A stretch of DNA of 64,000 nucleotides, taken from IMG/VR virus record IMGVR_UViG_2865859272_000007, positions 15,399 through 79,398 of that record; one strand, written 5' to 3'. A program made the position numbers and the translations under genes. Below the pieces are notes generated by a model. The model was not told the origin of the DNA, made no database searches, and was given only the letters and a program-made list of their open reading frames with translations. Source of the stretch: a virus. Its lineage: Duplodnaviria > Caudoviricetes. Positions 5,220 to 53,321 of the stretch are shown here, piece by piece. Position 1 is the first letter of the stretch, and the number at the start of each line of letters is the position of its first letter.

Positions 5220-5319
5220 CTCCCACGCCCTGATCGCATCAAGCAGCGGTGAGGGATCAAATGTCAGCCATGCGTCTGATCGTACACAGGCCGGCCCCAA
5301 CCGAAAGAGAAACGAGTAC

Positions 5320-5478
5320 ATGACCATATTCGCTTGGGTGCTCATTGCGCTCATCGGGATACCCGGGGTTATTGCCCTGCTGTACGCGGCCTTTGTGGAG
5401 CCAGCCGTTGCCTTCGCCCTCGGCGTCGTATCCCTGGCCCTCGTATTCGGCTGGGCGCTTTCGGTGGTGGTGCAATGA
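5320..5478 (+). CDS. Small two-TM membrane protein
   Basis: MTIFAWVLIALIGIPGVIALLYAAF; RBS GAAAGAG. Confidence 0.7.
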   Translation: MTIFAWVLIALIGIPGVIALLYAAFVEPAVAFALGVVSLALVFGWALSVVVQ

Positions 5479-5521
5479 CCCCGTCAACCGCGAAAGTCGC
5501 CTCAGAGGGGAAGGTGCTGCT

Positions 5522-6648: not shown

Positions 6649-8062
6649 CCGACAACCCCATCAAGACCTACACCTACGTATTCGACATCGAAGAAGCGCG
6701 GCGTTCGCTGTTCAGGCGGCCGAGATATGACCTCAAGGTGTTCCTGAACGTTGGGGATCCGTATCCGTACGAACATGTTGGCCAGCAATACGGCTTCAGG
6801 ACCTACGACCAGGCTTACGAGGCGGGCAGGCGTGCAGCTCAAGAGGACTACGAGCGCCGACTCTTCGAGTACTGGAAAGACGGGCAGCACGGTCTGGTAC
6901 CCAAGATCCCGCCATCGCGTAAGCGGGTCACCTACCACCCGGAGGGCACCGATGACTGACACCCTCATCGACGCCCGAGGCGTCCCCATCACCCCCGGCG
7001 ACACCGCCATCTACGGCTTCACCGTGGGCCGCAGTGTCGCGATGGCCGAGGCCGTCGTCCTCGGGGAGCTGGTCGGCCCCGACCTGCCTCCCGGCGTCAC
7101 TGCTGCCATCGTACTGGAGGAGAAGGTGTCGCTGACGCCGTCGGGGCGGGTCCGCCTCCGCGTCGTCCGCAGGTCGTACGGCGGCGGCGAGAAGCCCGTC
7201 GTGGACGTCGCCCCTGACCGGCTGGTGGTTTTGAAGCGCGAGTCCGTCATTGTCGGCGACGTCGTTTGCTCCGGCTTCCCCTACCTCCCGCCGTTGCCGA
7301 CGCAGGACGAGGAGGCGAGGGCGAAGATCGAGAGGGCGATCGAGTCCTACAAGCGCGGCCTCCGGGCGACGGAGGTGCCGCCCTTCTGGGCCGGGGAGGA
7401 TGGCGACCTCCTCGGTTACCACGTCTGGTGCGCAGAACGCCTGGCCGACTGCCACGAGGAGTTGGAGAAACTCGATGAGTGAGAGGTCCGACCGCGACAA
7501 GGTGTACGACGCCCTCAGCGAGCTGTACGTCTCGCATCAGCGCGGAGCTGCCCCGTTCTGGGCCAAGTCGCCACACAACTGCACCAGTTGCGAGGCACGC
7601 ATGGCGAAGGTCATGGCCGTCGTGGACGAGTACGCCGAGGAGGTCGCCTATCAGGCGGTCCGGGAGTACAGGGGGTTCGCCTGATGGGATACGGACCCTC
7701 GAAGAGGCCGATCAGGATTGCCGGGCGAGTGGACTGGTGGTGGGCCTGGCGGGCGTGCACCTGGCGCGGGCGCGCCCGGCTTGTCGCCACCGATCTGGCC
7801 TGGTACGCGTGGAGGACTGACCGTGATGAGTGAGAGCGCTGAGCTGCCGAGGTTCGTCCGGCGTCACCTGCCGGGCGAGATCGTGGACGAGATCTTCGCT
7901 TACGAGGCGAAGATCGACGGCGAATGGGGCTGCTGCTGCTCCCGCGGCCAGATCGAGCGCGGGGGGTGTCCGAACACCGACGTGGACCAGATCCAGATCC
8001 TCCGCCTCCTCGCCCGGCAGTGGCGGTGGGGCCCCGGCTTCCAGAGCAGGTGGGATTTCTGA
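6645..8062 (+). CDS. Hypothetical proteins 6645-6959, 6952-7482, 7475-7684, 7684-7833, 7826-8062
   Basis: Overlapping coupled ORFs with RBSs. Confidence 0.7.
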
Positions 8063-32240: not shown

Positions 32241-32316
32241 TCGTCGACCCTGCCCGTCTCCGTGCCGCCGCCGAGTACCTGGAGGGCGGCTAGGCCGGTA
32301 GCGCGGAGGGGTGGGC

Positions 32317-38604: not shown

Positions 38605-41600
38605 GTGCCGGTTACGAATCTCGGCTTCAATATCGTCAGTGCCTACAATGGCCGCGGCGTCCGGCAGGCGCAGCGCGACATCCGGTCGCTCAACTCTCAG
38701 ATCATCCGCGTCTCCAACATCACTCAGGGCGTCTCCACGATCGGAATCGGCGCTCTCCGCGGAGTCGCGGTGGCCACCGCCCCGGCGCTGCTGACTCTTA
38801 CTCGCGCTGCGACGTCTTCGGTGGCCTCGATCACCGCGATGGGCGTAGCGGCGGGTTCGGTTGGTGGCATTTTCGCCGGCGCCATGACTGGCGCGATCAA
38901 GCGCACTATCGAGATGCGGGATTCTACCGGAGCCCTGCGCGGCGAGGTCGATAAGGCAAAGGCAGCCCTGGACAAGGAGAAGGCGGCACTCGCCGGCCTC
39001 AAGCCCGGTAGCCAGGCGTACAAGAACCAGCTTGATCGGATCAAGGAAGCGCAGGCTGCTGTCACCGAGGCGCAGAACGAGTACAACGCGTCCTTGAAGA
39101 GGATGACTCCCTCTCAGAACGCGTTTCTGAAGAGCCTTGACCTGACAACTACTGCTTGGAACAAGTTCATTGTTGCCACGCAGGACAAAACGTTGACGGT
39201 GGCCAGCCAGACCCTGACCGGTGTGGCTGGGGCGATCGGCAAGATGAAGCCGGTTGTGGACGCGATTTTCCCAGCGGTTCAGCGGGTGAGTCAGGCATTT
39301 CAGAAGTGGGCCACCGGCTCCGGTATGGACCGGTTCATTCAGGTGCTCCTCGATAGAGGGGTTCCCGCGCTGGACGCTCTTCTTCGTGCAGGCCGGTCGG
39401 TGATGACCGTGCTCGGCGCGGGTTTCCGCGCATTCGCTCCTCTTGGCGCGAGCATGGCGAACAGCATCATGCGTGGCGCTGCGGCCATGGCGGCCTGGGC
39501 TCAGGACGGCGGGTTCCTTCGCTTCATCGAGCGGGTGCGGCAGGACGCGCCTCAGGTCCGCGAGTTCCTGCGGGCCTTGAGGGACGGGCTCTCGCAGCTC
39601 CTCCAGGCGATCAGGGAGCTCGGACCGCTGGCGCTCGGGCTGTCGACGGCGCTCTTGCGGATCATCGCGTCCACGCCGATCCCCGTCCTTCAGGCGATCA
39701 TCCTGTCCTATACGGCATGGAAGACCGCCCTGCTGGGACTGATCGTCGTCAAGGGTCTGTTCATCGGCGTGATGGGCTTGGCGCGGGCCGCGGTCTTCGC
39801 CTACAGCCTCGCGCAGATCCTCCTGACCGGAAGCACAAGGCTGCTCGGCGCCTCGACAATGGCGCTGAGCGTGCAGCTCCTCGTCATGCAGGCCCGCATG
39901 CTGATCATCGCGGCAGCGACCAAGGTGTGGGCAGCAGCGCAGTGGCTCCTGAACATCGCCATGCGCGCGAATCCCATCATCTTGATCGTCTCCCTGATTG
40001 CCACACTGGTCGCGGGCATCATCTGGGTCGCCACCCAGACACGCTTCTTCCAGACCGTGTGGAGCGCGGTATGGAACACCGTGAAGGCCGTAGCGGACTT
40101 CATCTGGAGCGCCCTTCAGTTCGGATTCCGCGCGATGGTGACGTTCTTCGTCATCGTTTGGCAGACCGTCTCAGGCGCCCTGGTCGCTGCATGGAACGTG
40201 GTCTGGAACCTCATGCGGGTGGCCGCCCAGGTCGTCTGGACCGTCCTCCAGGCGGCGTGGAACGTCTTCATCAACACGCTCCTCACGATCTGGAACGCGG
40301 TTTCAACCGCTCTTGCGGCGGCCTGGAACGCGGTTTGGAACGGCATCCGAGTAGCTGCACAAGCGATCTGGACCGTCCTCCAGGCGGCCTGGAACATCTT
40401 CATCAACACGCTCCTCACGATCTGGAATGTGGTTTCCACGGCCCTTGTCACGGCCTGGAACTTCGTCTGGAACGTCATAAGTACGGCCGCACAGGGGATC
40501 TGGACCATCCTTCAGGCGGCGTGGAACGTCTTCATCAACACGCTGCTGACCATTTGGAACACGGTCTCCGCTGCCCTTCGAGCGGCATGGGACCTCGTCT
40601 GGACCGGGATCCAGACCGCAGCAGAGACGGTGTGGAACTTCCTCACCGCGGCGTGGGAAACCTTCACCAACACGCTGCAATCGATCTGGGACGGCTTCAA
40701 AGACGGGTTCATGTCCGCCATCGAAGCTGTCTGGAAAAGCATCCGGTCCACGGCCGAGTCGGTCTGGCGCAGCATCGGTGAGGTCATCGAGGGCGCCATC
40801 AACGGCATCATCGGGATCATCAACCGGATCATCGGTGCTTGGAACAGGATCACGGGCGCTGTCGGGCTCGATTCGCTCAACATTCCGACGATCCCCACCG
40901 TCAGCATCAACTTCGCGTACGGCGGAATCGTTGGGGAGGCCCCCGGGTTCGCCAAGGGCGGCACCGTCGCAATGCACCGCAGGGGCGGTGTCCTCCCTGG
41001 GTATTCGCCCGGTCGGGACACCGTTCCGGCCATGCTCAGCCGCGGCGAGGGCGTCCTCGTGCCGGAAGCGGTCCGCGGCCTGGGGCCGAACTTCGTCCAC
41101 TGGGCGAACCGGCACTTCTCCAGGGGCCGGGCCGGTAAGAACGTGGCCTACCCGGGCTACGCCGTCGGCGGGATCGCCGGCATCGAGGCGTGGCAGCGGG
41201 TCGGCGGCGACGTCGGCTGGGCCTTCCTTCAGGGCGGCGGTGTCGTCACGGGCGACGACGACACCCCGCGGCCGAACATCGGCCAGGGGGCGTTCTTCAG
41301 CAGCGACCCCAACCGCAGGGAGCGCAGCCCCAGCTTCGGTGGCGTTGCCGGTATCGGCAGTCCCGAAGCGCCGGAAGGGCCGATCAGCGGGTTCGTCACG
41401 AACGTGTTGGGATTCCTTGGGGAAGCGGCGATTCGTGCCGCGTTCAGCTTTGCGACCCGTCTGCTCGACGGCTTCAGCATGGCCGGCAACTTCGGGAAGA
41501 TCCTCGTCGCGGGCACCAAGAAGATCCTCAACGCCATGATCGACGATCTGATTCGGCGGGACTCCGAGGCCAAGGCCGAGTTCGAGTCGATGGCGGTCGC

Positions 41601-43815
41601 GGGGAATCCCGGCTCCGTCTCGGCGTGGTCTGGCCTCGCGGCCCAGGCCCTCGCTAGGGCCGGCCTCGCCCCTGGCCAGCTTCCCCGGTTCCTCGCCCTG
41701 ATGGCTGCGGAGTCCGGCGGTAACCCGAACGCGATCAACAACTGGGACATCAACGCCCGCAACGGCGTCCCGTCCCAGGGCTTGATGCAGGTGATTCCGC
41801 CGACGTTCGCCGCCTATCGGGACCCTTCCCTGTCTAATAACATCTTGGATCCCCTCGCCAACATGACCGCGGCTGCCCGCTACATCAGGTCGCGGTACGG
41901 CGGCCAGGTGCCCGGTTCTCCGTACGCCAACGGGACTCCGGGTGCGACCAGGGGGCCGCATCTCGTGGGTGAGAACGGTCCCGAGATGGTGAACTTCCGG
42001 GGCGGGGAGACGGTGATGTCCGCCGTCGATACCCGAAGGGCTCTTGGCAGCACGCGCGTCGGGGGAGGTGCGGCGGCTGGGGGTTCGGGCAGTATCGAGG
42101 ATCTCCTCGCGATGTTCCCGGAGATCCAGAAGCACGTCGAAGACCTTGTGCCGCAGTGGCACGAGGCGATGCGTGCACGCACGGCCGAGACCTGGGCCGC
42201 GATGTCGGCGCAGCAGATCACGTCCTGGGAGGGGATGAAGGCATCCGTCTTCTTCCCGTTCCGCGATGAGATGACCGTGCAGATGCCTCTCCACCTGGAG
42301 GCCATGCGTCTGGCCAACTTCACCAAGTGGACCCAGATGGGCGCCGACAGCCTGGCCCAGTGGGAGCTGATGCGCACCGGGGTGTTCGTGCCGGCCATGG
42401 ATCACATGACGGTGCAGATGCCGACGTGGGCTGCGCAGATGCAGGCGGCTGTCTCGGCGGCCTTCGCCGGCATGCTGGAGTCCGTCCAGGGCTCTTGGGC
42501 CGGCATGCAGGAGGCCACCCGCGGGCCGGTCAACTGGATCATCAGCAACAGCTACGGCAACGGCATCCGCCGGCTGTGGAACGAGGTCGCCGCGGTCATC
42601 TTCGACGGCGGTGGGCGCACGCTCCCGGCCGTGTCCACCCTCGCCACGGGTGGCCGGGTCGCCGGGCGCGGCACACGCACCTCTGACTCCAACCTCGCTC
42701 TTCTCTCCCGAGGGGAGCATGTGTGGAGCGCCAGGGAGGTTGCCGCGGCGGGTGGCCACCATGCAGTCGAGGCGCTTCGTGCCCGTGCTCGTGGCGGGCA
42801 TCTGCCGGGCCTCGCGCTCGGCGGCTGGCTCACGAACGCCGGCGCGGTCTCGGGCAGCAGTCCGGCCGGCGTCCCGGTCAGCACCCCGCTGGTCCGGGGC
42901 TGGCTCGGCGACGACGTCATTCCGGTCCTGGAGAACATCGACGCCGCGGCCCGGAACGCCTTGGGCGGCTCCGCCTTCCGGCGCCTGGCCGCTCTCGGAG
43001 ACGTCCTTCGACCGGTCGACTGGATGAAGCAGTACATCGAGCTCGACGACGAGCTGAACCGGGTGTTCATCGGCACGGGCCCTCCGTGGGTTCCGGGCGT
43101 CTCCGATGTCCGGACCAGCTGGGGCGGCGTGGCGGTGAACCAGCGTACGGCGCAGATGCTGAACATGGCTCTCGCGCTCGGCGCCAGTTTCAGCGCGACG
43201 CAGGGCTCGTGGAGCACCAGCGTTGCGGCGTCGGCCGGCACGCATGCCGGCGGCGGTGTCGTGGACCTGGTCCCGGCGAACAACACCAACGTCGCCGCGC
43301 TGCGGGCGGTCGGGTTCGCTGCATGGAACCGCGGTGCGGCGTGGGGCTCCCCCTCGTTCGCCCCGCACATCCATGCGGTCGCGATCGGCGACCCGACGGC
43401 ATCCCCTGCGGCCCAGGCCCAGGTGGCGTCGTTCTTCGCCGGCGGCAACGGCTTGGCCAACGGCGGCCCGGACAACTTCGCCGGCGGGCTCTCGTTCGCT
43501 GGTCTGGCCAGCGGCGAGAAGCCGACCGGCCAGTTGCTGGCGCTGATCGAGCAGATGCGCGGGCCTGGCACGCCGGTCGATCCGGCGGACATCGACCAGT
43601 TCCGTCCGATCTCGTTCGACAGCGGGGGCATGCTGGAGCCGGGCTACACCCTGGCCTACAACGGCACCGGCAAGCCGGAACCCGTTGGTGAAACGGGCAA
43701 GGAGGTGCACATCCACATCCACGGAAATGTGTACACGAAATCGGCTGCCGAGTTCGAGGACATGCTCGCTGGTGCGATGCAGAACCTCAAGCGTAAGAAC
43801 CGCTTGCCGCGATGA
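38605..43815 (+). CDS. Tape measure protein with SLT transglycosylase and M15-like peptidase domains
   Basis: 1736 aa; Trp-periodic repeats; ESGGNPNAIN..GLMQ at about 41700; SAGTH.GGG..D and HIH at about 43230-43380. Confidence 0.93.
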   Translation: MPVTNLGFNIVSAYNGRGVRQAQRDIRSLNSQIIRVSNITQGVSTIGIGALRGVAVATAPALLTLTRAATSSVASITAMGVAAGSVGGIFAGAMTGAIKRTIEMRDSTGALRGEVDKAKAALDKEKAALAGLKPGSQAYKNQLDRIKEAQAAVTEAQNEYNASLKRMTPSQNAFLKSLDLTTTAWNKFIVATQDKTLTVASQTLTGVAGAIGKMKPVVDAIFPAVQRVSQAFQKWATGSGMDRFIQVLLDRGVPALDALLRAGRSVMTVLGAGFRAFAPLGASMANSIMRGAAAMAAWAQDGGFLRFIERVRQDAPQVREFLRALRDGLSQLLQAIRELGPLALGLSTALLRIIASTPIPVLQAIILSYTAWKTALLGLIVVKGLFIGVMGLARAAVFAYSLAQILLTGSTRLLGASTMALSVQLLVMQARMLIIAAATKVWAAAQWLLNIAMRANPIILIVSLIATLVAGIIWVATQTRFFQTVWSAVWNTVKAVADFIWSALQFGFRAMVTFFVIVWQTVSGALVAAWNVVWNLMRVAAQVVWTVLQAAWNVFINTLLTIWNAVSTALAAAWNAVWNGIRVAAQAIWTVLQAAWNIFINTLLTIWNVVSTALVTAWNFVWNVISTAAQGIWTILQAAWNVFINTLLTIWNTVSAALRAAWDLVWTGIQTAAETVWNFLTAAWETFTNTLQSIWDGFKDGFMSAIEAVWKSIRSTAESVWRSIGEVIEGAINGIIGIINRIIGAWNRITGAVGLDSLNIPTIPTVSINFAYGGIVGEAPGFAKGGTVAMHRRGGVLPGYSPGRDTVPAMLSRGEGVLVPEAVRGLGPNFVHWANRHFSRGRAGKNVAYPGYAVGGIAGIEAWQRVGGDVGWAFLQGGGVVTGDDDTPRPNIGQGAFFSSDPNRRERSPSFGGVAGIGSPEAPEGPISGFVTNVLGFLGEAAIRAAFSFATRLLDGFSMAGNFGKILVAGTKKILNAMIDDLIRRDSEAKAEFESMAVAGNPGSVSAWSGLAAQALARAGLAPGQLPRFLALMAAESGGNPNAINNWDINARNGVPSQGLMQVIPPTFAAYRDPSLSNNILDPLANMTAAARYIRSRYGGQVPGSPYANGTPGATRGPHLVGENGPEMVNFRGGETVMSAVDTRRALGSTRVGGGAAAGGSGSIEDLLAMFPEIQKHVEDLVPQWHEAMRARTAETWAAMSAQQITSWEGMKASVFFPFRDEMTVQMPLHLEAMRLANFTKWTQMGADSLAQWELMRTGVFVPAMDHMTVQMPTWAAQMQAAVSAAFAGMLESVQGSWAGMQEATRGPVNWIISNSYGNGIRRLWNEVAAVIFDGGGRTLPAVSTLATGGRVAGRGTRTSDSNLALLSRGEHVWSAREVAAAGGHHAVEALRARARGGHLPGLALGGWLTNAGAVSGSSPAGVPVSTPLVRGWLGDDVIPVLENIDAAARNALGGSAFRRLAALGDVLRPVDWMKQYIELDDELNRVFIGTGPPWVPGVSDVRTSWGGVAVNQRTAQMLNMALALGASFSATQGSWSTSVAASAGTHAGGGVVDLVPANNTNVAALRAVGFAAWNRGAAWGSPSFAPHIHAVAIGDPTASPAAQAQVASFFAGGNGLANGGPDNFAGGLSFAGLASGEKPTGQLLALIEQMRGPGTPVDPADIDQFRPISFDSGGMLEPGYTLAYNGTGKPEPVGETGKEVHIHIHGNVYTKSAAEFEDMLAGAMQNLKRKNRLPR
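40234..40629 (+). repeat. Three 132-bp tandem repeats in the tape measure gene
   Basis: RTCTGGACC...TGGAAC..CTTCATCAACACGCT at 40234, 40366, 40498. Confidence 0.85.
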
Positions 43816-43833
43816 GGCGAAGGGAGCTTCCTG

Positions 43834-46800
43834 ATGAGCATCACCCAGGTAGGAAGCTCCACCAGCGGGGTTGAGCCGGCTAGTACATCGGTTAGCGCTG
43901 ACAGGCCGACCGGAGTACAGGAAGGTAACATCCTGATCGCGACCTTCCAGGCTAATGATCAGGATGCTACCTTCCCGTCCGGGTTTACAGAGTTTGTAGA
44001 CGAGCTGACCGGGGTTTTCAGGCTCCAGATGGCCTGGAAGAAGGCGACATCTTCGGAGCCGTCGAGTTACTCGGTTTCGGTGGGCGCTTCAGCGCCCCTG
44101 GTTTTGAGTATTCAGGCGTGGGCCGGGGCCGATGCGGTAAGCCCCACCTATGCGGCGAGCCGGGCCGTTGCCTCGGATGCCACAGACCAGTCTGAGCCGT
44201 TCAGTACTCCGACGATCACCAACAACAACGTCGGCCGTGGCCGGAAGCTGTACCTTCGGGCCTGCCGGTCGACGAGCTCTATCATCACGTACACCACGGC
44301 TGTGTCCGGTGTCACAGAGGTCGAAGACGTCGGTGTCTTCTCCGGCGGCACCGTTCGCTACTCCCACGGGCTGTACAAGGACAACAACGACCTGGACCAC
44401 GATGCCCGCGGCAGCCAGTCCGGGATCGGTATCACCGCGAGTGATACCGAAACCAACAACATCGTTGTCACCTACATCCTGACGTCGCAGATCAACGCCG
44501 GGCACGCCGCGGTCACAGCGACGGGCAACGCGCCCCGTGCAGGCGTCGGGGCAAAGGCCACCGCCGCTACGGCTACCGCCACGGCGAACGACGCCCTGGT
44601 CGTCACGGAGACCGTCGAGGCGCCCGCTGAGCCTGGGGCTGTCGCCGCTACCGCCAACGATGCGACCGCGGGGCTGGTCGAGTTCCCCCGGACCGCCTCC
44701 TACCAGATCTTCATCGACTGGGACAACGACGGAGGGCTCCAGCTCGGGGAGTTCGAGGCGACAACCGAAGGGTGGATCGGCTTCGGGAGCATCGCGCCGA
44801 CGCTGACGGTCTCCGACACCCGGGCGAAGTCCGGGAACAAGTCGCTGCGCATCGACTTCCGAACCTTCAACCCGTTCCAGTTCGGTGTGGCCGGCTCCGG
44901 CTTCGACCAGGGCGGCTTCGGCGGGGACCAGTTCGACCCCCCGGAACTGCCGATCAAGTTCGACCAGGCCGGGCAGGGCTTCGACGACGGGCGGTTCGCC
45001 GCGTTCAAGGACCAGACGGCCCCCGACCCGGCCGAGCCCGCCTTCCAGTCACCCGGCATCGAGCGGCCCTTCACCGGTTTGTTCGTGGGGCGCGTCTACG
45101 AACTGGTGGCGTGGGTGTTCGTGCCCACCGGCAGCCCCGCGGTCCGCGTGGGCGTTCGCGGCATCGGCACGTCCGCCGCCTCCTCAACGAATGACGCCTG
45201 GGAGCGGCTGTCGTTCAGCTTCGCCGCCACCTCCACGGACCACGTCCTGGAGCTGACGACCGACGAGGACAACCCCGCCTCCGCCCCTGTCTGGGCGGAC
45301 CTGTTCCAGGTTCTCGGCCCCGGAGAGGACGTATCGCACCGCGTGCTCGGTCTGCGGCAGGCGCTCGCCTTCTCGGCAGGCCGGGACACCGCGCGCTCCC
45401 TCGCGGCCATCAAGCCCGGGGAAACCCGCATGGTCTTGGACAACGAGTCGGGCGACTACTCTCCGGACAATCCCGGGTCGCTGCTGGCGAGCTTCCTTGG
45501 CCCCGGCCGGCCGGTACTGATCCGCGCGGAGCACGGGAACCGGATCTACAACCTGTTCCGCGGCTACCTGGACAGCTACGACCTGTCCCCGAACCCGGAC
45601 AGCCGCAGCGTCGAGCTCGGTGCCCTGGACCTCCTGGGTGTCCTCGCGGACGCCGAGATGTCCACCCAGCTCTACTCCTCGCTGCGCACGGGAGCCGCGG
45701 TCAATGCCCTCCTGGACGAGATCGGCTGGCCCTCGTCGCTACGCGACATCGACCCGGGAGCCACGACCATCCAGTGGTGGTGGGAAGAGGGCACGACCGG
45801 GCTGGAGGCCCTCGCGAAGATCGTGGACTCCGAAGGCCCGCCGGCTATCGCGTACGTGGACACGTCCGGGAACCTCGTGTTTCGGGACCGGCACCACAGG
45901 ATGACGCGGGCCGAGTCCACGGCCATCCAGGCGACGATCAGGGACGGCCACGAAGAGCCGATGTTCTCGCCGCCGCTGAACTACGACATCGGATGGCGCG
46001 ACCTGATCAACGACGTGGTCATCGACGTGACGGAACGCCGCCCGGATGTGGAGCAGCGGGTCTGGTCGACGCAGGACCGCTTCGTGATCGAGCCGGGAGG
46101 GACTCGGGAGTTCATCGTCAAGCCATCGGATCCCTTCCTCAACGCGCAGGTTCCGGTGGGGCAGGCGTTCAACGTGGACGGTTACGAGGTCGAGCCTGAT
46201 TTCGTGATCGAATCTGGTTCTGTCGGTGAGGTCACTCTGTCCCGTACATCGGGCCAGTCCACGAAGATCATCGTCAAGTCTGACTCGGGTGTACCGACGG
46301 TTATCCAGGGGATGGCTCTCCGGGCTTCTCCGGTGACGGTCCACCTGGAGCAGCAGGTGCGCAGGGCCGACACCGACTCTCAGGCGCAGCACGGCGTGAA
46401 GTCGCTCCAGGAGGAGGCGCCGTGGGTGACGGTGAACGACGCTGAGGCGATCTCCGAACTGATCATTGGGAACCGCTCACAGCGGCTTCCGGTCGTCCAG
46501 ATCAGGATCACCAACGGAAACGCCCAGCGGATGGCGCACATCCTTCAAAGGCGCCTGTCTGACCGCATCCACATTGTGGAGATGCTCCAGTCGTTCATGG
46601 ACCACGACTTCTTCATTGAGCAGATCTCTCACGAGATCGCCCAAGTCGGCTATGACCACAGCGTGGTTCTCGGTTGTGAGCGGGCCCGCGAGCAGGTGTT
46701 CAAGGCAACGGAGGATGAGACGGAGCCGCCGCCGGCCTTCATGTTCGATGTCGACGGCCAGGGGTTCGACGATGGCTATTTCGAGCCCGGCGACGGCTTC

Positions 46801-46866
46801 CAGCTCGCGGAGACCGTGTTCAAGCTGGGCTCCTCGCAGCTGGACGTAGACGGACTGGGCTACTAG
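43834..46866 (+). CDS. Large minor tail protein (Dit/hub-like with a CBM-like insert)
   Basis: Follows the tape measure gene; LDNESGDYSP, RPVLIRAE, LFRGYLD hub motifs; YELVAWVFVP CBM-like segment. Confidence 0.8.
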   Translation: MSITQVGSSTSGVEPASTSVSADRPTGVQEGNILIATFQANDQDATFPSGFTEFVDELTGVFRLQMAWKKATSSEPSSYSVSVGASAPLVLSIQAWAGADAVSPTYAASRAVASDATDQSEPFSTPTITNNNVGRGRKLYLRACRSTSSIITYTTAVSGVTEVEDVGVFSGGTVRYSHGLYKDNNDLDHDARGSQSGIGITASDTETNNIVVTYILTSQINAGHAAVTATGNAPRAGVGAKATAATATATANDALVVTETVEAPAEPGAVAATANDATAGLVEFPRTASYQIFIDWDNDGGLQLGEFEATTEGWIGFGSIAPTLTVSDTRAKSGNKSLRIDFRTFNPFQFGVAGSGFDQGGFGGDQFDPPELPIKFDQAGQGFDDGRFAAFKDQTAPDPAEPAFQSPGIERPFTGLFVGRVYELVAWVFVPTGSPAVRVGVRGIGTSAASSTNDAWERLSFSFAATSTDHVLELTTDEDNPASAPVWADLFQVLGPGEDVSHRVLGLRQALAFSAGRDTARSLAAIKPGETRMVLDNESGDYSPDNPGSLLASFLGPGRPVLIRAEHGNRIYNLFRGYLDSYDLSPNPDSRSVELGALDLLGVLADAEMSTQLYSSLRTGAAVNALLDEIGWPSSLRDIDPGATTIQWWWEEGTTGLEALAKIVDSEGPPAIAYVDTSGNLVFRDRHHRMTRAESTAIQATIRDGHEEPMFSPPLNYDIGWRDLINDVVIDVTERRPDVEQRVWSTQDRFVIEPGGTREFIVKPSDPFLNAQVPVGQAFNVDGYEVEPDFVIESGSVGEVTLSRTSGQSTKIIVKSDSGVPTVIQGMALRASPVTVHLEQQVRRADTDSQAQHGVKSLQEEAPWVTVNDAEAISELIIGNRSQRLPVVQIRITNGNAQRMAHILQRRLSDRIHIVEMLQSFMDHDFFIEQISHEIAQVGYDHSVVLGCERAREQVFKATEDETEPPPAFMFDVDGQGFDDGYFEPGDGFQLAETVFKLGSSQLDVDGLGY

Positions 46867-46882
46867 AGGGCCTCGGCCCAAG

Positions 46883-46930
46883 GATCCCGGCGCCCCTGCC
46901 TGATCAGAAGGCGGGGGCCGGGGTCTTTCC
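46883..46930 (+). terminator. Probable terminator
   Basis: Long GC hairpin GATCCCGG...CCGGGGTC followed by TTT. Confidence 0.6.
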
Positions 46931-46956
46931 ATGTCCTCAATCAGGGAGGAACCCGC

Positions 46957-47274
46957 ATGCATTTGATCACAGGCAGGGCTCGGGCACGTATGTACTGGGG
47001 CAACTGGATCGCCGATTGTCCCGGCAACTGCGGGTGCGCCCTGCGGCTCAAGCCGGCTCAGGCGTCGTTCCCTTGCCCGGAGTGCAAGCTCATCAGCGAG
47101 GTGGAGTGGCCGAGTAACGCCGACGAGATCTACCAGGTTCTGCTGAAGCGGCCGGCGCCGAGGAATCGGAACTGGTTCCCGGCCGGGCACGAGCTGGCCC
47201 TGCGTGCGGGCTGCCCGCACGGGCAGTCCGTAGCCGACCTGGAGGCGGAGACCGCAGAGCACATGGAGGGGTGA
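46957..47274 (+). CDS. Small Cys-rich tail-associated protein
   Basis: CPGNCGC, CPEC and CPHGQ motifs. Confidence 0.75.
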   Translation: MHLITGRARARMYWGNWIADCPGNCGCALRLKPAQASFPCPECKLISEVEWPSNADEIYQVLLKRPAPRNRNWFPAGHELALRAGCPHGQSVADLEAETAEHMEG

Positions 47275-47278
47275 CCCG

Positions 47279-47815
47279 ATGGCTTGGACGTCCCCCATGA
47301 CGGCGGTCGCAAACGACGTCTTCACTGCCGCCCAGTTCAATACGCACGTTCGCGACAATCTGCTGGAGACCGCGCCGGCGAAGGCGACGACCGACGGCGG
47401 GATGTTCTTCGCTACCGGGGCGAACGCCATCGCGGAGCGGGTGCCCACGACGGCGACGGTGGCGACGAGCGAGTCCACGACCAGCACCAGCTACACGGAC
47501 CTGTCGACGGCCGGCCCGGCGGTGACCGTGACCACCGGCACCAGGGCGCTTGTGTTTATCAGTGCGGACGCACAGAACGACGCGGCAGGCAGCGATGCCC
47601 TGTATTCGTACGCGGTGTCCGGTAGTACTACGGTCGCCGCCGCCGACTCCTTCGGATCGTTCCTTGAGTCGTCCGGGAGCAGGCGCCACCGCTGGACGGT
47701 GGCCAGCATGCAGACCGGTCTTACGGCAGGTTCCAATACGTTCACGATGAAGTACCGGGTGTCTGCGAACACCGGCACGTTCCAGAATCGGAACATCGTC
47801 GTCGTGCCCATGTGA
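47279..47815 (+). CDS. Short tail fibre/RBP-like paralog 1 of 7
   Basis: MAWT.PMTAV..FTAAQFNTHVRDNLLET N-terminus; C-terminal GSNTFTMKYRV. Confidence 0.85.
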   Translation: MAWTSPMTAVANDVFTAAQFNTHVRDNLLETAPAKATTDGGMFFATGANAIAERVPTTATVATSESTTSTSYTDLSTAGPAVTVTTGTRALVFISADAQNDAAGSDALYSYAVSGSTTVAAADSFGSFLESSGSRRHRWTVASMQTGLTAGSNTFTMKYRVSANTGTFQNRNIVVVPM

Positions 47816-47828
47816 GGGGTGAGTCCTC

Positions 47829-48365
47829 ATGGCATGGACCGCCCCCATGACGGCTGTGATCGGGCAACCCTGGACGGCGGCCCAATTCAACCAGCACGTC
47901 CGGGACAACCTGCTGGAGACGATGCCCGGCAAGGCCACCGCCGCAAACCGGTTGTATGTCACGAGTACGACGAAGGCCATCGCGGAGCGCGCACCCGATT
48001 CCGCGTTCCTGGCGACGGCGGCAACAACCACGTCGACGTCGTACGTCACCCTGGGAACCGGGCCGGCCGTGACGGTGACCACCGGCTCCACCGCGGTGGT
48101 GTGGTTCGGCTGCCAGCTCAAGAACAGCTTGACCAACGCGCAGGCGATGGCAGCTGTGGCGATCTCCGGTGCGACGACCCGGGACGCGGCGGACGCAGAC
48201 CGGCTTCTGATGTCGGGTGTGACCGCGGACAAGGACAACCGGTTCGGGGTGTGCCGGCGCTTCACCGGGCTCAGCCCCGGCAGCCAGACGTTCACCATGC
48301 AGTACCGGGTGTCCGCAGGCACAGGCACCTTCTCCCGGCGGGAAATCGTCGTTCTGCCTTTGTGA
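47829..48365 (+). CDS. Short tail fibre/RBP-like paralog 2 of 7
   Basis: Same N- and C-terminal motifs; own RBS. Confidence 0.85.
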   Translation: MAWTAPMTAVIGQPWTAAQFNQHVRDNLLETMPGKATAANRLYVTSTTKAIAERAPDSAFLATAATTTSTSYVTLGTGPAVTVTTGSTAVVWFGCQLKNSLTNAQAMAAVAISGATTRDAADADRLLMSGVTADKDNRFGVCRRFTGLSPGSQTFTMQYRVSAGTGTFSRREIVVLPL

Positions 48366-48373
48366 GGTGACAC

Positions 48374-48940
48374 GTGGCCTGGACGACCCCCATGACCGCC
48401 GTCGCTAACGCGACCATCACGGCGGCCGAGTGGAACACCCACGTTCGCGACAACCTGCTGGAGACCGAGCCTGCGAAGGCGGACGCTACGGATGTCTATC
48501 TGGTGTCGACAGGCGCGAACGTCCTGGCGAAGCGTGCGAGCGCCGGCGACCACATCGAGGCGCAGCAGGCCACGACCAGCACCAGCTACACGGACCTGTC
48601 GACGGCCGGCCCGGCGGTAACGGTGACCACTGGCACGAAGGCCATCGTGTGGATCTCTTGCGCCATGAACCAGACCGTTACGGACGCCCTCATGGCGGCC
48701 TCGTTCGCAGTCTCCGGCGCCACCGCGGTGTCCGCCAGCGACGACTGGGCGGTCATGACAAGCGGCGTCACCCGGAACCCGAACATGACGGGCAATCCTC
48801 GCGATAACCACAATCGGCGGGGTGTCGCCCGCATGGTGACGGGGCTCAACGCGGGATCCAACACCTTCACCATGAAGTACCGGGTCGGTTCTGGGACGGG
48901 CCACTTCCACAACCGGGAGATTGATGTTCTCCCTCTCTGA
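48374..48940 (+). CDS. Short tail fibre/RBP-like paralog 3 of 7
   Basis: GTG start with GAGGTG RBS; same motifs. Confidence 0.85.
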   Translation: MAWTTPMTAVANATITAAEWNTHVRDNLLETEPAKADATDVYLVSTGANVLAKRASAGDHIEAQQATTSTSYTDLSTAGPAVTVTTGTKAIVWISCAMNQTVTDALMAASFAVSGATAVSASDDWAVMTSGVTRNPNMTGNPRDNHNRRGVARMVTGLNAGSNTFTMKYRVGSGTGHFHNREIDVLPL

Positions 48941-48960
48941 TTTGAGGGAGGTTGAAGCTG

Positions 48961-49503
48961 TTGGCTTGGTCTGCTCCCATCACCGCGGTTTCCGGAGAGT
49001 TGCTGACTGCCGCTGAGTACAACGCGTCAGTACGGGACAATCTTGCCGAATGCGCTCCCAACATCGCAACGCAAGAGGGGTCCATATTTCAGGCATCTGC
49101 TCCGAATCGGATTGTTGAGAGGCAGGTTGTCTCGCACCGCGTACCCGAAGAGGATTCGATCCCGACACAGCAGACGAGCTACGTCGAGATCCGCAATGCT
49201 GGTCCGTTCGTGACGGCAGTCACCGGGGCGAGCGCGCTGGTTTTCGTGACCTGCGAGATGGCGGGGAACACGAATACGCAGTGCTCGGCGAGCTTCGAGG
49301 TCTCGGGGTCGACGAGGATCTCCGCCTCGGACAAGTGGCGGGTCGTTCATGACGCGATGGAGAAGGATCACTTCAGCCGCTATTCGGTAGCGCGACGAGT
49401 CGAGCTGAATCCCGGGTCGAATACGTTCCGCATGAAATATCGGACCGGTGGCCTTGGGCCTTTCCGGTTCAGGAATCGCGAGATCGTCGTCATACCGCTG
49501 TAG
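48961..49503 (+). CDS. Short tail fibre/RBP-like paralog 4 of 7
   Basis: TTG start (MAWSAPITAV) 9 nt after GGAGG; same motifs. Confidence 0.85.
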   Translation: MAWSAPITAVSGELLTAAEYNASVRDNLAECAPNIATQEGSIFQASAPNRIVERQVVSHRVPEEDSIPTQQTSYVEIRNAGPFVTAVTGASALVFVTCEMAGNTNTQCSASFEVSGSTRISASDKWRVVHDAMEKDHFSRYSVARRVELNPGSNTFRMKYRTGGLGPFRFRNREIVVIPL

Positions 49504-49511
49504 GAGGTCTC

Positions 49512-50045
49512 ATGGCTTGGACAGCGCCCATGACGGCGGTCGCAAATACCGCCTTCACCGCCGCCCAGTTCAATACGCACGTTCGCGACAACCTGTTGGA
49601 GACCGCTCCGGCGAAGGCCACGTCCGGGGGTGGTCGTTTCTTCGCCAGCAGCGACACGAACACCATCGTCGAGCGCAGGATCCATCAGGCCCAGGTGCTG
49701 ACGTCGCAGTCGACGTCCAGTACGTCGTACACGAACCTGTCCACGTCCGGCCCGACCGTAACGCTCACCACCGGCACCCATGCGCTGGTGATCGTGTCGG
49801 CGCAGTTCAGCAACAATACGTCGGACAACTCGTGCTTCATGAGTCATGAAGTGTCGGGGGCGACTTCGATTTCCCCGAATGACGACCGCTCTCTCAGGCT
49901 GCAAGGAACCCTTAACTACCAGGGGTCCCACGCGTTCCTTTGGACGACGCTCAATGCCGGGTCGAACACATTCCAGGCTAAGTATCGAGTATTCAGCGGC
50001 ACCGGTACCTGGCTGAACCGCCGCATTACGGTTATGGCGTTCTGA
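49512..50045 (+). CDS. Short tail fibre/RBP-like paralog 5 of 7
   Basis: RBS AGGAGG; same motifs. Confidence 0.85.
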   Translation: MAWTAPMTAVANTAFTAAQFNTHVRDNLLETAPAKATSGGGRFFASSDTNTIVERRIHQAQVLTSQSTSSTSYTNLSTSGPTVTLTTGTHALVIVSAQFSNNTSDNSCFMSHEVSGATSISPNDDRSLRLQGTLNYQGSHAFLWTTLNAGSNTFQAKYRVFSGTGTWLNRRITVMAF

Positions 50046-50581
50046 TGGCTTGGACTGCACCGAAGACATGGGTCGCCGAGCAGGTTCTCACCGCCGCCGA
50101 ACTCAACACACACCTCCGTGACAACCTGCTGGAGACAGCTCCCGCCAAGGCCACCACCGAGGGTTCTTACTTCGTGGTGAGCGACCTGAATCAGATCGCC
50201 GAGAGGAAGCCCGAGGTAGCTCGCGTCTCGGCCGGCGAGTCCACGAGTTCCACTTCCTACGTGGATCTGGCCACGACAGGGCCGGAGGTCACGGTGACGA
50301 CCGGGTCCAGCGCGATTGTGCTGATCTACTCGCAGTTGCGGAACACCGTCGAGGACTCGGGGTCGATGATGTCTTTCGCGATATCCGGGGCAACGTCCCG
50401 CAGTGCGCTGGACACCACCGCGATTCTGCACCGAGGCAACGCGAATCAATCGCAGCGCTTCTCCGCGTTCGACATGATCACCGACCTGACTCCCGGCTCC
50501 AATACCTTCACCGCGAAGTACAGAGTGACCGCCGATACCGGGACCTTTGGGGATCGGATGATCGCGGTTTTTGCGCTCTGA
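50045..50581 (+). CDS. Short tail fibre/RBP-like paralog 6 of 7
   Basis: TGATG coupling; same motifs. Confidence 0.85.
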   Translation: MAWTAPKTWVAEQVLTAAELNTHLRDNLLETAPAKATTEGSYFVVSDLNQIAERKPEVARVSAGESTSSTSYVDLATTGPEVTVTTGSSAIVLIYSQLRNTVEDSGSMMSFAISGATSRSALDTTAILHRGNANQSQRFSAFDMITDLTPGSNTFTAKYRVTADTGTFGDRMIAVFAL

Positions 50582-50593
50582 AAGGGGGAGGCG

Positions 50594-51145
50594 ATGGCGT
50601 GGACCGCGCCGACCACCTTTGTCGACGGTCAGGTGCTCACCGCCGCACAGCTCAATACGTATCTGCGTGACAACCTGATGGCCACGGAAACGGCTGTAGC
50701 CAGAACCCCGGGCAGCTTTCTGGTCGCGAGGGCGCTTTCGCAGATCGTTGAGCGCAAGCCGGTCATTTCGCGGGTGGCCGCGGCCGAAACGACCGAGAGC
50801 TTCCAGTTCACCGACCTGAACACACCGGGCCCGCAGGTGACCGTAGAGACAGGCCCGTCGGCGATCGTTTTCCTCTACTGCGGCTCCAATAGCGATACCC
50901 CCGGAATCGCGTCAACCATGGCGTACGAGATCGAGGGACGAAACAGAGTCACGACAGGCTCCGTTCCGACAGGCGCCGTCGAGTTCCGCACCTCCGGAGG
51001 GGCAGGCTTCACGCGGCACGGCGGAGCCGTATCGATGATGAATGACCTCACTCCCGGCGAGAACACCTTCACCGCCAAATACAAGACCAGCGGTTCGGGG
51101 ACCAGTACCTTCCGTGACCGCGTGATGATCGTGTTCCCGCTGTAA
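50594..51145 (+). CDS. Short tail fibre/RBP-like paralog 7 of 7
   Basis: RBS GGGAGG; same motifs. Confidence 0.85.
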   Translation: MAWTAPTTFVDGQVLTAAQLNTYLRDNLMATETAVARTPGSFLVARALSQIVERKPVISRVAAAETTESFQFTDLNTPGPQVTVETGPSAIVFLYCGSNSDTPGIASTMAYEIEGRNRVTTGSVPTGAVEFRTSGGAGFTRHGGAVSMMNDLTPGENTFTAKYKTSGSGTSTFRDRVMIVFPL

Positions 51146-51158
51146 CGGGAGGTTGGCC

Positions 51159-51353
51159 ATGAACAACGAGGTGGAAGTCGCCTCCCGACTGGCCCGTATC
51201 GAAGCCCGGCTGGACGAGCTGGTGCGACTGAATCAGAGTCGCGGCGAAGACCACGAACAGCGCATCAGGACGCTCGAAAGATGGCGCTACGCCATTCCAC
51301 CCACCGTCGTCGCGGCGGTCATCTCCGCCCTTGTGGCCATATTCGGAAAGTGA
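51159..51353 (+). CDS. Small coiled-coil plus single-TM lysis-region protein
   Basis: RLARIEARLD, DHEQRIRTLERW, C-terminal hydrophobic helix. Confidence 0.75.
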   Translation: MNNEVEVASRLARIEARLDELVRLNQSRGEDHEQRIRTLERWRYAIPPTVVAAVISALVAIFGK

Positions 51354-51359
51354 GAGCCG

Positions 51360-53321
51360 GTGAACCTCTTCACCCAAAAGCAGGTAGAAGATCTCTGTGT
51401 CCACGTCGGTTTCTCCCGCTCGGATGCCCGCATCGCTTCTGCTATCGCGATGGTCGAGGCTCCGGCCGAAGGCAGGCCCGGCTTCTGCGACGCCGACGCC
51501 GTCGGAGACCAGGAGCTGGCCAACTCCACGTGGGGCTACAGCTACGGCTTCTTCCAGATCCGCTCCCTGCGGGCCCACAAGGGCACCGGCCAGTACCGGG
51601 ACGAGGACCGCCTCCGCAATCCCGACTTCGCATGCCGGTCGGCGCTGCACATCTTCCAGAACGCAGGCGGGGGTACGTTCAACGACTGGACGACCTACCG
51701 GACCGGTCAGTACAAGGCATACCTCCAGGACGAGTTTCCGCCCGACCCCGGCACGTATGTCGTCGTCTCCGGCGACACCCTCACCAAGATCGGCCTCAAG
51801 GTCGGTGTCGAGTGGCAGGAGATCGCCCGCCTGAACAACCTGCACCACCCGTACACCATCAACATCGGCCAGGTGCTCCGGCTCCCCGACGGCGCGGGAC
51901 TGCCTCCTGAGCCGGTGCAGTACACCGTCGCCGCCGGCGACACCCTGTGGGCGATCGGGAAGCGCTTCGGCATCCCGTGGGAGCACATCGCCCGAGCCAA
52001 CGGCATCGTCGGGCCGTACGTCATCCACCCCGGAGACGTTCTCGACATTCCCGGAACCCAGGGCGACCCTGCCCCCGAGCCCGAGCCTGAGCCCGAGCCT
52101 GAGCCCGTCGAGATCAACCTGTCGAACCTGACCTTCAACGCCCGCAACGACGACGTCGCCCTGCTCCAGCAGGCCCTCACAGATGCCGGCCACGACCCCG
52201 GCCCCGTCGACGGCTGGTACTACAACATGACCCGGGCCGCGATCAGGGCCTTCGAGGAAGCGGAGGGCCTGATCGCCGATGGGCTTGCCGACCGCGCGGT
52301 GTGCGAACGACTGGGCTTCGCCGTCACCGGCGAGGACCCCCCTGTTCCTCCGCCGAGCTCGGGCGCGGTGTCGGCCGACAGCATCCGGGCCGCGGCCACC
52401 GGCGGCACCCGCATATCCGGCACCTACTCGCACAGCAGCATGGCCAACCCGGTGTCTGTGTACCGCAAGGGCGACGCCGTCTACTTCCACGCCGGCATGA
52501 CCATCGACTGCGACGGCCGGCCCGGCTCCATCTGCAACAGCACCACCGACCCGTGGTTCCAGCCGCAGACCGCTTGGCAGCAGTCCGACGGCCGGCACCT
52601 GGACGCCGCGGACCTGCCGTTCATCGTGATCCCGCTCGCGTCGTCGACCTGGGACTACCGGCAGCACGGTATCGGCGGCGGGGATTTGTGCGTCGTCGCT
52701 TACCGGGACCGCTTTTTGTATGCGGTCGTCGGCGACCTCGGACCCACGTACCGGATCGGCGAGGCGTCCAACGCCTGTGCCCGCGCCCTCGGCATCAACG
52801 GCGACCCGCGTGTCGGCGGCACCGGCAGCGGCGTGACGTACGTGGTGTTCCCCGGCGTGAAGGTCCGGCCCATCGAGTCGAAGGCCGAGGCGTCCCGCCT
52901 GGGCGCCCAGAAGCTGACCGAGTGGCTGGGGATCGGGACGTCGCCGGCGCCGTCCTTCGAGGGTGAGGTGCTGCGCCTCACGAATGTCGAGCGGCAGGCC
53001 GGCGGGCTCCGGCCGCTGTCCGCTGATACGCGACTGGACCGCGCCGCGGAGAAGCATTCCGCCCGCATGTCCGACGGCCTGGGCCTGGTCCACAGCGATC
53101 TGGCGGCAGCGCTTCGAGCGGAGGGCGTCAGCTTCCGGTCCGCGGCCGAGAACATCGCTGTCGGATACCGCACCCCGCAGGCCGTGGTCGCTGCGTGGAT
53201 GAACTCGCCTGGTCACCGCGACAACATCATGAGCCCCGGCCTCACGCACCTGGGCGTCGGCCACGTACAGGCGTCGGACGGCCAGCACTGGTGGACCCAG
53301 ATGTTCGCCTCCATGGCATGA
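51360..53321 (+). CDS. Multidomain hydrolase: SLT-like, 2 LysM, PG-binding, GH75 chitosanase-like, CAP domain
   Basis: AIAMVE..YGFFQI; GDTL LysM twice; IDCDG, LDA..LPFIV, GDLGP..GEAS (GH75); VLRLTN.ER, AENIA.G, WMNSPGHR.NI (CAP). Confidence 0.88.
   Translation: MNLFTQKQVEDLCVHVGFSRSDARIASAIAMVEAPAEGRPGFCDADAVGDQELANSTWGYSYGFFQIRSLRAHKGTGQYRDEDRLRNPDFACRSALHIFQNAGGGTFNDWTTYRTGQYKAYLQDEFPPDPGTYVVVSGDTLTKIGLKVGVEWQEIARLNNLHHPYTINIGQVLRLPDGAGLPPEPVQYTVAAGDTLWAIGKRFGIPWEHIARANGIVGPYVIHPGDVLDIPGTQGDPAPEPEPEPEPEPVEINLSNLTFNARNDDVALLQQALTDAGHDPGPVDGWYYNMTRAAIRAFEEAEGLIADGLADRAVCERLGFAVTGEDPPVPPPSSGAVSADSIRAAATGGTRISGTYSHSSMANPVSVYRKGDAVYFHAGMTIDCDGRPGSICNSTTDPWFQPQTAWQQSDGRHLDAADLPFIVIPLASSTWDYRQHGIGGGDLCVVAYRDRFLYAVVGDLGPTYRIGEASNACARALGINGDPRVGGTGSGVTYVVFPGVKVRPIESKAEASRLGAQKLTEWLGIGTSPAPSFEGEVLRLTNVERQAGGLRPLSADTRLDRAAEKHSARMSDGLGLVHSDLAAALRAEGVSFRSAAENIAVGYRTPQAVVAAWMNSPGHRDNIMSPGLTHLGVGHVQASDGQHWWTQMFASMA

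Follow-up and report, generated by a model that had tools for sequence, protein, structure and literature searches.

The DNA analysed here is a stretch of 64,000 nucleotides (positions 15,399 to 79,398 of IMG/VR virus record IMGVR_UViG_2865859272_000007), referred to below as the window, and corresponds to positions 54512-118511 of contig 189 of the genome. It carries a complete temperate siphovirus-type prophage of Streptomyces. Between the tail hub gene and the lysis genes of this prophage, an array of seven tandem genes (47279-51145) encodes small proteins, each composed of a conserved N-terminal anchor and a C-terminal jelly-roll knob with the predicted fold of trimeric TNF-like lectins. 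The paralogs are old, intact and under purifying selection, and their order is conserved in a second Streptomyces prophage. We infer that a multivalent adsorption device is the best reading of the array. Its probable form, to which a probability of roughly 0.65 was assigned, is a panel of homotrimeric lectin-like minimal fibres sharing one kind of anchor.

The array and its seven genes

An earlier note on this DNA, made from the sequence alone, had described seven tandem, co-oriented and intact paralogs of 177-188 residues. Both the list of open reading frames (ORFs) of the window and an end-to-end alignment of the proteins agreed with this description and with the positions given for the genes. 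In the list below, orthologues are numbered by their place in the ten-copy array of a related locus, L092 (Streptomyces sp. NPDC002855), L042 and L048 are related viral contigs, and the ratios of nonsynonymous to synonymous substitution rates (dN/dS) are approximate.

47279 to 47815, + strand: knob fibre paralog 1, 178 residues; nearest relative L092 copy 3
47829 to 48365, + strand: knob fibre paralog 2, 178 residues; orthologue L092 copy 4, 65% identical, dN/dS 0.20
48374 to 48940, + strand: knob fibre paralog 3, 188 residues, GTG start, longer variable loop; orthologue L092 copy 5, 65% identical, dN/dS 0.15
48961 to 49503, + strand: knob fibre paralog 4, about 180 residues from the TTG at 48961; orthologue L092 copy 6, 56% identical
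49512 to 50045, + strand: knob fibre paralog 5, 177 residues; orthologue L092 copy 7, 58% identical
50045 to 50581, + strand: knob fibre paralog 6, 178 residues; orthologue L092 copy 10, 58% identical; start overlaps the stop of paralog 5
50594 to 51145, + strand: knob fibre paralog 7, 183 residues; the most divergent copy, without an L092 orthologue; nearest relatives in L042 and L048

The seven proteins could be aligned from end to end with 32 invariant columns. Identity to copy 1 was 40-57%, and pairwise identity among the seven paralogs was 34-56%. The shared N-terminal motif and the C-terminal GP.VTVTTG and G.NTF..KYR motifs were present as described previously. Paralog 4 was the most divergent among copies 1-6, with 34-41% identity to the L092 copies other than copy 6. 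Its ORF opens at 48952 and counts 183 residues from there (48952-49503). The true start is most likely the second TTG, at 48961, because this codon lies 9 nucleotides after a GGGAGG and yields the 'AWS' N-terminus typical of the family.

A GGAGG-like Shine-Dalgarno sequence was found 5-10 nucleotides upstream of six of the seven genes, and gene 6 is predicted to be translationally coupled because its start overlaps the stop of gene 5 (TGATG). The proposal that every gene has its own ribosome-binding site or a coupled start was therefore retained, with the start of gene 4 moved to 48961. The GC content at third codon positions (GC3) of all seven genes was 0.72-0.87, like that of neighbouring phage genes. 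No promoter-like sites were found in 43500-52000, and terminator-like sites were not in excess there, so the array is most simply regarded as part of one late transcript. No further copies were detected elsewhere in the genome (6.98 Mb, 240 contigs searched).

Fold and homology of the knob

An AlphaFold2 (AF2) model of paralog 1, built from an alignment of 146 sequences, had a mean predicted local distance difference test score (pLDDT) of 95.9. Each protein has a conserved anchor of about 40 residues, a short beta neck and a C-terminal jelly-roll knob. The N-terminus is extended with a helix at residues 17-28, small beta hairpins follow at 42-67, and a jelly-roll sandwich continues to residue 178. 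Residues 42-177 are all-beta, as had been guessed when the C-terminal part was called beta-sandwich-like. By AF2 and structure alignment the knob is a compact 10-strand jelly-roll beta sandwich of about 120-130 residues.

The closest structural matches of knob residues 55-178 were two trimeric TNF-like lectins, PLTL (Z-score 13.4, root-mean-square deviation (rmsd) 2.4 Å, 116 residues) and the N-terminal domain of BC2L-C, BC2L-C-Nt (Z 13.1). They were followed by the Chlamydia Pgp3 C-domain (Z 11.9), BxpB/ExsFA and the birnavirus VP2 P domain. Further matches were the cyanophage A-1(L) short-fibre CBD (Z 10.2) and the phi812 spike knob, and C1q, TNF and EDA gave Z-scores of 8.5-9.6. The Sf6 and HS1 needle knobs were among the Foldseek matches, and the matching predicted viral structures included proteins of Actinoplanes phage phiAsp2, Arthrobacter phage Galaxy and Streptomyces phage BRock. 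TNF-like lectins, the C1q/TNF family and Pgp3 are trimers, and TNF-like lectins such as BC2L-C-Nt bind sugar at protomer interfaces.

At the level of sequence the knob is linked to minor tail proteins. All seven proteins matched positions ~745-882 of the 882 positions of PHROG 7565 ('minor tail protein') with E values from 5e-10 to 4e-17. The full-length architecture of that family, a spike of about 800-880 residues, was absent; the match covers only the last ~125 positions, and the N-terminal anchor is unrelated. No Pfam match was obtained for any of the seven proteins, including C1q (PF00386), TNF (PF00229) and Chlam_vir/Pgp3 (PF05475) at E <= 1, and in the Atlas the C1q and Chlam_vir clusters were only weak neighbours (0.85-0.87). 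A sequence-profile search of the PDB with the knob family gave no match.

A collection of 50,697 phage records was searched at nucleotide and translated level. Neither megablast of the region nor tblastn of paralog 1 (E <= 1e-5) gave a match, and no full-length member of the family was found among these sequenced phages. With paralog 6 (tblastn, E <= 1) only C-terminal matches were obtained, 85 of 87 in mycobacteriophages. Most of them fell on the extreme C-terminus of an annotated 'minor tail protein' (gene 22), with about 37% identity; the identity to the end of Angel gp22 (797 residues; cluster G, the group that includes BPs and Halo) was 37% over 117 residues. In BPs, gp22 is described as the tail spike; adsorption, host range and the dependence on trehalose polyphleates are all altered by its substitutions A306V, L462R, A604E and G780R (PMC10465359). 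G780R is located near the C-terminus of gp22.

The same knob also ends metagenomic chains with collagen repeats, pectate-lyase-like beta helices or Gly-rich domains, which are typical trimeric fibre contexts. Taken with the PHROG 7565 and gp22 homology, the TNF-like fold and the position of the genes between hub and lysis genes, this upholds the assignment of the array to tail fibres or receptor-binding proteins (RBPs). Natural fusions of knobs were also observed: P0123 is a chain of 422 residues with three different knobs in a row, and P0270-P0277 include several double-knob proteins of about 256 residues.

Anchor and variable segments

The anchor has the consensus MAWTAP..TAA.LN..RDNLLETAPAK and was found within the window in the seven knob genes only. 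The best conserved parts were the anchor and the GP.VTVTTG, NTF..KYR and C-terminal strands, the least conserved was the stretch of residues ~101-146. Entropy was 0.85 bit in the anchor and 1.7-2.1 bit in the variable knob segments. Among paralogs 1-6 the mean identity was 64.7% for anchors and 43.6% for knobs. The division into a conserved anchor and divergent loops, as originally proposed, can thus be placed at residues ~101-146 for the variable stretch. In relatives, an insertion of about 170 residues is tolerated in this region (P0212; the first copy of L042, L042:4154-5230). Because of its low conservation and this tolerance, the stretch fits an exposed binding surface.

In other prophage-like loci, 40-50 nearly identical residues precede unrelated C-terminal parts, and the anchor is therefore a mobile module. 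It appears to be a widely shared plug for which there is no Pfam model. Other C-terminal domains, one of them Gly_rich_2, were seen behind the anchor in L135 (2331-4608) and, at 7001 in each case, in L120, L124, L125, L140 and L147, and L135 has three anchor genes in tandem. The anchor motif in these prophage-like loci, which come from Dehalococcoidia, Acidobacteriota, Steroidobacteraceae and Chloroflexota metagenome-assembled genomes (MAGs), reads MAWTAPKTWV..TAA.LNTH.RDNLLETAPAK.

Copy number and evolution of the paralogs

Copy numbers were taken as profile hits in the fetched loci, of which 99 contained at least one full copy; where a contig ends, the number is a lower bound. The distribution was as follows.

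1 copy: 45 loci
2 copies: 38 loci
3 copies: 7 loci
4 copies: 3 loci
6 copies: 5 loci
10 copies: 1 locus

The earlier note expected one such gene per phage. For this family the expectation has to be given up, as 2-10 copies were present in 54 of the 99 related loci. The ten-copy array is that of L092. Six copies were found in two Streptomyces genomes (L106 and L146) and three viral contigs (L016, L042 and L048), and L042 has an additional, insertion-bearing seventh copy. In the seven loci with a hub at least 44% identical to that of the window, copy numbers were 2, 3, 6, 6, 6, 6 and 10 (median 6), compared with a median of 1 copy in the other 65 loci. Large arrays are thus the rule in the sublineage of the window. 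Multi-copy arrays are thus recurrent, the number varies from 1 to 10, and seven is normal for the sublineage and not unique to this phage.

In a FastTree phylogeny and in identity matrices, paralogs 1-6 proved colinear with their orthologues, L092 copies 3, 4, 5, 6, 7 and 10. Identity was 56-65% within these pairs and 34-56% in the remaining comparisons between window and L092. Of the six pairings, that of paralog 1 with L092 copy 3 was the weakest, and paralog 7 had no partner in L092. Across the multi-copy loci, the best match of 152 of 156 copies lay in another locus. For the six orthologous pairs dN/dS was 0.15-0.33 by the Nei-Gojobori method; since dS between orthologues is saturated, these values are approximate and should be read as rough upper estimates. 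The claim that all seven genes are intact and look translatable is thereby extended to purifying selection. Because of the colinear L092 orthologues and these ratios, the paralogs are considered old and each of them maintained. Judged from the sequences, the array is not the product of recent duplication. That two Streptomyces prophages keep these old paralogs in the same order also argues that each copy has its own job.

The hub, zinc-ribbon and holin genes that flank the array were 53-62% identical between the window and L092 prophages, so the knobs do not evolve unusually fast between orthologues. Homogenised anchors within an array might be expected if all paralogs of one phage used the same site. 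Such concerted evolution was considered and rejected: the anchors group by orthology, as the knobs do, with 79.5% identity between orthologues and 64.7% between paralogs, and show no sign of homogenisation. Short patches of high identity were found between some paralogs whose overall nucleotide identity was 61-63%. Paralogs 1 and 3 share 47 identical nucleotides (47477-47523 and 48572-48618), and paralogs 1 and 5 are about 87% identical over the first ~120 nucleotides (47279-47400 and 49512-49633), with an exact run of 32 nucleotides inside. These patches suggest occasional local gene conversion within the array.

No machinery for directed variation was detected. There was no match to the reverse transcriptase family RVT_1 in the whole genome, no resolvase-type recombinase on contig 189, such genes being present on other contigs only, and no meaningful inverted repeat in 46800-51400. 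This is in line with the proposal that diversity arises here without a diversity-generating retroelement (DGR) or an invertase.

Tail tip and neighbouring genes

The prophage encodes a large terminase, portal, protease, major capsid protein, head-tail connector, tail chaperone, a tape measure protein of 1736 residues and a Prim-Pol/AAA replication protein, with an integrase at the right edge of the window. Downstream of the tape measure gene (38605-43815) the order is a hub of 1010 residues, a Cys-rich protein of 105 residues, the seven knobs, a holin-like gene and multidomain lysins. The genes next to the array are listed here.

43834 to 46866, + strand: baseplate hub or Tal-like protein, 1010 residues; identified from AF2 and Foldseek/VIA structure matches
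46957 to 47274, + strand: Cys-rich (zinc-ribbon-like) protein, 105 residues, CxxxCxC...CxxC; directly upstream of the knob genes
51153 to 51353, + strand: holin-like small protein; phrog_5225 (E 8e-11) and phrog_689 holin (E 0.005)

The hub protein had no Pfam or PHROG match, and a sequence-profile search of the PDB with the hub family gave none either. Its AF2 model, based on an alignment of 58 sequences from related loci, had a pLDDT of 78 overall and above 90 for residues 400-950. A gp27/Mu gp44-type fold spans residues ~286-952, with Z-scores of 15-17 to the Mu gp44, Milano and phiCD508 hubs in Foldseek and VIA comparisons. A carbohydrate-binding module (CBM) like those of families CBM22, CBM4 and CBM16 is inserted at ~292-499 (Z 15.9 to CBM22). 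The N-terminus consists of an extra beta domain (1-100) and a disordered Ala-rich linker, and this extension of about 285 residues is absent or variable in relatives. The hub gene lies directly 3' of the tape measure gene, and a hub homologue was found upstream of the array in the related loci examined. The hub is a candidate docking platform for the knob fibres.

No separate Dit gene is present between tape measure and hub in the window or in the relative L008. In L008 the tape measure gene spans 3027-5768 and the hub gene 5765-7369. The tail-tip genes of the window prophage form a very reduced siphovirus set.

The zinc-ribbon protein is a candidate adaptor or assembly factor for the fibres. 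Homologues with 39-64% identity were found in 94 upstream ORFs of related loci, and the gene was directly upstream of the knobs in every locus examined for gene order. Searches with it gave weak zinc-ribbon and tail-chaperone matches in Pfam and unnamed or zinc-ribbon neighbours in the Atlas, and in neither an informative relative. The tail module ends, and the lysis cassette begins, at the holin-like gene, which is followed by the lysins. The same gene order through the holin was found in L092, L106 and L146, and across the related loci the hub, zinc-ribbon protein, 1-10 knob genes and holin-like gene keep this synteny.

Two other proteins of the prophage were noted. An ORF of 928 residues rich in Ala, Val, Gly and Ser (32311-35097) is located between the capsid and connector genes and has no Pfam or PHROG match. 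Its GC3 was not elevated (0.72/0.66/0.71). Residues 115-251 are 31% identical to residues 112-254 of the hub N-terminal extension (E 2e-4), with 'ANDA'-type repeats in both. It could be either a genuine virion protein of repetitive sequence that has a module in common with the hub, or a partly spurious frame. The tape measure protein has internal domains that match endolysin PHROGs (phrog_971, E 5e-67), and at least three separate lysin genes are also present downstream in the module.

Proposed mechanism and alternative explanations

In the mechanism that we favour, each paralog would assemble into a homotrimer, as every close structural match does. The homotrimer would dock to the tail tip through the shared anchor, on the hub or on the zinc-ribbon protein. 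Each trimer would then show a differently shaped, probably sugar-binding head formed by the variable segments ~101-146, and a virion, or a population of virions, would carry a panel of lectin-like heads. The CBM in the hub points to saccharide receptors and to multiple weak lectin contacts. Together, panel and hub CBM would make adsorption to the variable cell-wall glycopolymers of Streptomyces avid and redundant, and the host range wider or more stable. The array would grow and shrink by birth and death of old paralogs with occasional short patches of gene conversion, without a DGR, invertase or shufflon.

Several points weigh against this reading. The identity between knob and lectins is only 11-16%, and a shared fold is not proof of a shared function. 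Expression of all seven copies and their presence in the virion are presumed, and trimerisation, docking partner and sugar binding are deduced from fold and context. The saturated dS mentioned above makes the estimates of selection approximate. Because no separate Dit gene lies between tape measure and hub, the tail-tip architecture, and with it the number of docking sites, is hard to predict. The GFDxGxF motifs of the hub (356, 382 and 977) were tried as a proxy for docking sites and rejected: in 92 hubs they did not track copy number (Spearman correlation -0.29 for the strict and 0.03 for the loose form).

A related idea, regarded as possible but doubtful, is that the array generates adsorption diversity without a DGR: 7-10 anchor-compatible knobs, produced together from a single operon, would compete for few hub sites or mix within trimers, leaving each virion with a stochastic set of heads. 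If true, this would amount to population-level bet-hedging of host range, encoded purely by gene number.

Under alternative use of the copies, docking sites on the tail tip would be few and each virion would bear a single kind, or a few kinds taken at random, of the seven trimers, so that the burst is phenotypically mixed as a form of bet-hedging, or most copies would be produced in negligible amounts. A trimeric hub would offer 3 (or 6) symmetric positions, fewer than the 7-10 paralogs; moreover, the anchor is of the same type on all paralogs, and array length varies between relatives. However, purifying selection acts on every paralog as a separate orthologous lineage, and no copy is therefore a dead spare. 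No regulatory element was found within the array, and the anchors differ by up to 55% between paralogs and may thus not compete for one site. Alternative use of the copies is therefore considered unlikely.

Combinatorial heterotrimers had also been suggested. Here the paralogs would co-assemble as the products of the tandem C1q A, B and C genes do, and binding sites at the interfaces, where TNF-like lectins hold their sugar, would multiply specificities far beyond seven. Mixed packing is conceivable, as the core strands (GP.VTVTTG, NTF..KYR and C-terminal) and the anchor are the most conserved parts, and translational coupling within a single operon would produce the subunits side by side. The natural chains with two or three different knobs (P0270-P0277, P0123) can be read in the same direction, but may merely stack homotrimeric knobs along a fibre. 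The survey of copy number speaks against an obligate heterotrimer: single-copy loci (45 of 99) are the largest class, followed by 38 two-copy loci, so homotrimers suffice for the family, and the numbers observed (1, 2, 3, 4, 6, 7 and 10) follow no multiple-of-three rule. A fixed A+B pairing of paralog classes in two-copy arrays was looked for and not found. Heterotrimers are accordingly regarded as quite improbable.

A role outside receptor binding, as decoration or accessory proteins of tail shaft or head or as secreted lectins that bind wall debris, would agree with the occurrence of the TNF-like fold in non-phage proteins (exosporium ExsFA/BclA, Pgp3) and with the lack of a family name in every source, but it is very unlikely given the canonical RBP position after the hub and before the lysis genes, the knob at the distal end of long minor tail proteins and collagen or beta-helix fibres, and an N-terminus that is a conserved anchor and not signal peptide-like.

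Comparison with known systems

The proposed panel of homotrimeric knobs resembles several known systems in part. The cluster G gp22 proteins (BPs, Halo and Angel; PHROG 7565) have a homologous C-terminal region of about 120 residues. In both cases it lies distally on a tail-tip protein whose gene immediately precedes the lysis region. However, gp22 is one protein of about 800 residues present once per genome, and its N-terminal 670 residues have no counterpart in the window proteins, whereas the window knob belongs to a protein of 180 residues on an anchor of 40 and occurs seven times. The TNF-like lectins (Photorhabdus PLTL, PDB 9IB6/9IB7; the Burkholderia BC2L-C N-terminal domain, PDB 2WQ4) have a knob of equal size and jelly-roll topology (Z 13.1-13.4, rmsd 2.2-2.4 Å over 115-116 residues), but they are not virion parts, their identity to the knob is as low as given above, and the knob has no Pfam match to C1q, TNF or Chlam_vir.

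The logic of a short fibre made from one protein is found in cyanophages. The myocyanophage Pam3 has a single fibre protein, gp24, which forms a simplified short trimeric fibre from a small N-terminal docking element and a TNF-like domain (PMC9608196). Similar short fibres occur in cyanophages A-1(L) and A4 (PDB 8KE9, 9K09). Unlike the window proteins, Pam3 gp24 depends on a downstream chaperone and contains a long helical bundle together with a distal domain rich in glycine (PMC9608196). The window proteins have a short helix (17-28) and a TNF-like domain, without a Gly-rich tip and without a downstream chaperone, the zinc-ribbon gene being upstream. Pam3 gp24 was not among the structural matches listed for the knob. 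These cyanophages are myoviruses or podoviruses, and no tandem fibre array was noted in the descriptions consulted.

Multivalent recognition without a DGR or invertase is known from the branched complex of tailspike proteins (TSP1-4) of Ackermannviridae (PMC11414711) and from LtfA/LtfB of the T5-like phage DT57C (PMC4728585). These systems consist of adjacent RBP genes with shared N-terminal attachment and divergent binding parts, and the same arrangement was found in the window. They differ in that two to four large RBPs, often enzymatic beta-helix spikes, dock on each other via dedicated domains, whereas the window has minimal non-enzymatic knobs, 7-10 in number with its relatives, on a siphovirus hub. 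Neither a TSP-type beta helix nor an XD/gp10-like interaction domain was present in the window proteins, which contain an anchor and a jelly-roll knob only. A last parallel is with the 'evolved' Dit and Tal proteins with CBMs in siphophages of Gram-positive bacteria (PMC7291167, PMC7533335). The window hub also has an inserted CBM, but in those phages the binding modules are inside Dit or Tal, while here the diversity lies mostly in separate small genes and a separate Dit gene is missing.

Phages with multiple RBPs and TNF-like fibre knobs are thus already known. New are a very large, unnamed family of anchor-plus-knob fibres of 180 residues; tandem arrays of up to ten old paralogs, with an order conserved between the window and the 10-copy Streptomyces prophage; and a minimal tail-tip module of hub, zinc-ribbon protein and knobs. 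The searchable literature and cultured phage genomes yielded none of the three.

Distribution and significance of the family

A word-index search retrieved more than 3,700 proteins of similar length. In an exhaustive profile search, 7,993 clusters at 50% identity were obtained at E <= 1e-3 and 697 at E <= 1e-30. The family clusters are nearly all viral or metagenomic, those in the Atlas mainly viral, and where a label is given in the sources, it is 'hypothetical protein'. The family was found in 276 loci of IMG/VR. GTDB representatives with full-length members included Streptomyces, Actinomadura, Micromonospora, Paractinoplanes, Nocardiopsis and some MAGs. In the genus of the window, the family was present in 2 of 401 genomes, this genome and one other, when the best 8 candidates per genome were scored. 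Members were also seen on short contigs binned to Saccharibacteria (L100, L107 and L136) or Verrucomicrobiota (L102, an Oleiharenicola MAG); in L100 four copies form an array, and the hub gene is present too. Mis-binning of actinophage contigs could explain these cases; alternatively, the phages or fibre genes may belong to epibionts of actinomycetes. No description of the family or of such arrays was found in the literature searched.

Receptor recognition by phages of Streptomyces and other actinomycetes is poorly understood. The present family, which occurs mostly in soil viromes, is unnamed and lacks a Pfam model, and the phage records searched contained no cultured representative of it. 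With a plug of 40 residues and a knob of 125 residues, predicted with very high confidence, the protein is close to the smallest self-contained receptor-binding unit. Hundreds of plug-compatible natural heads, and arrays of 1-10 copies, make the family a tractable model for multivalent lectin-type adsorption and for the relation between copy number and host range. They may also serve as a natural toolbox for the retargeting of actinophages in laboratory strains.

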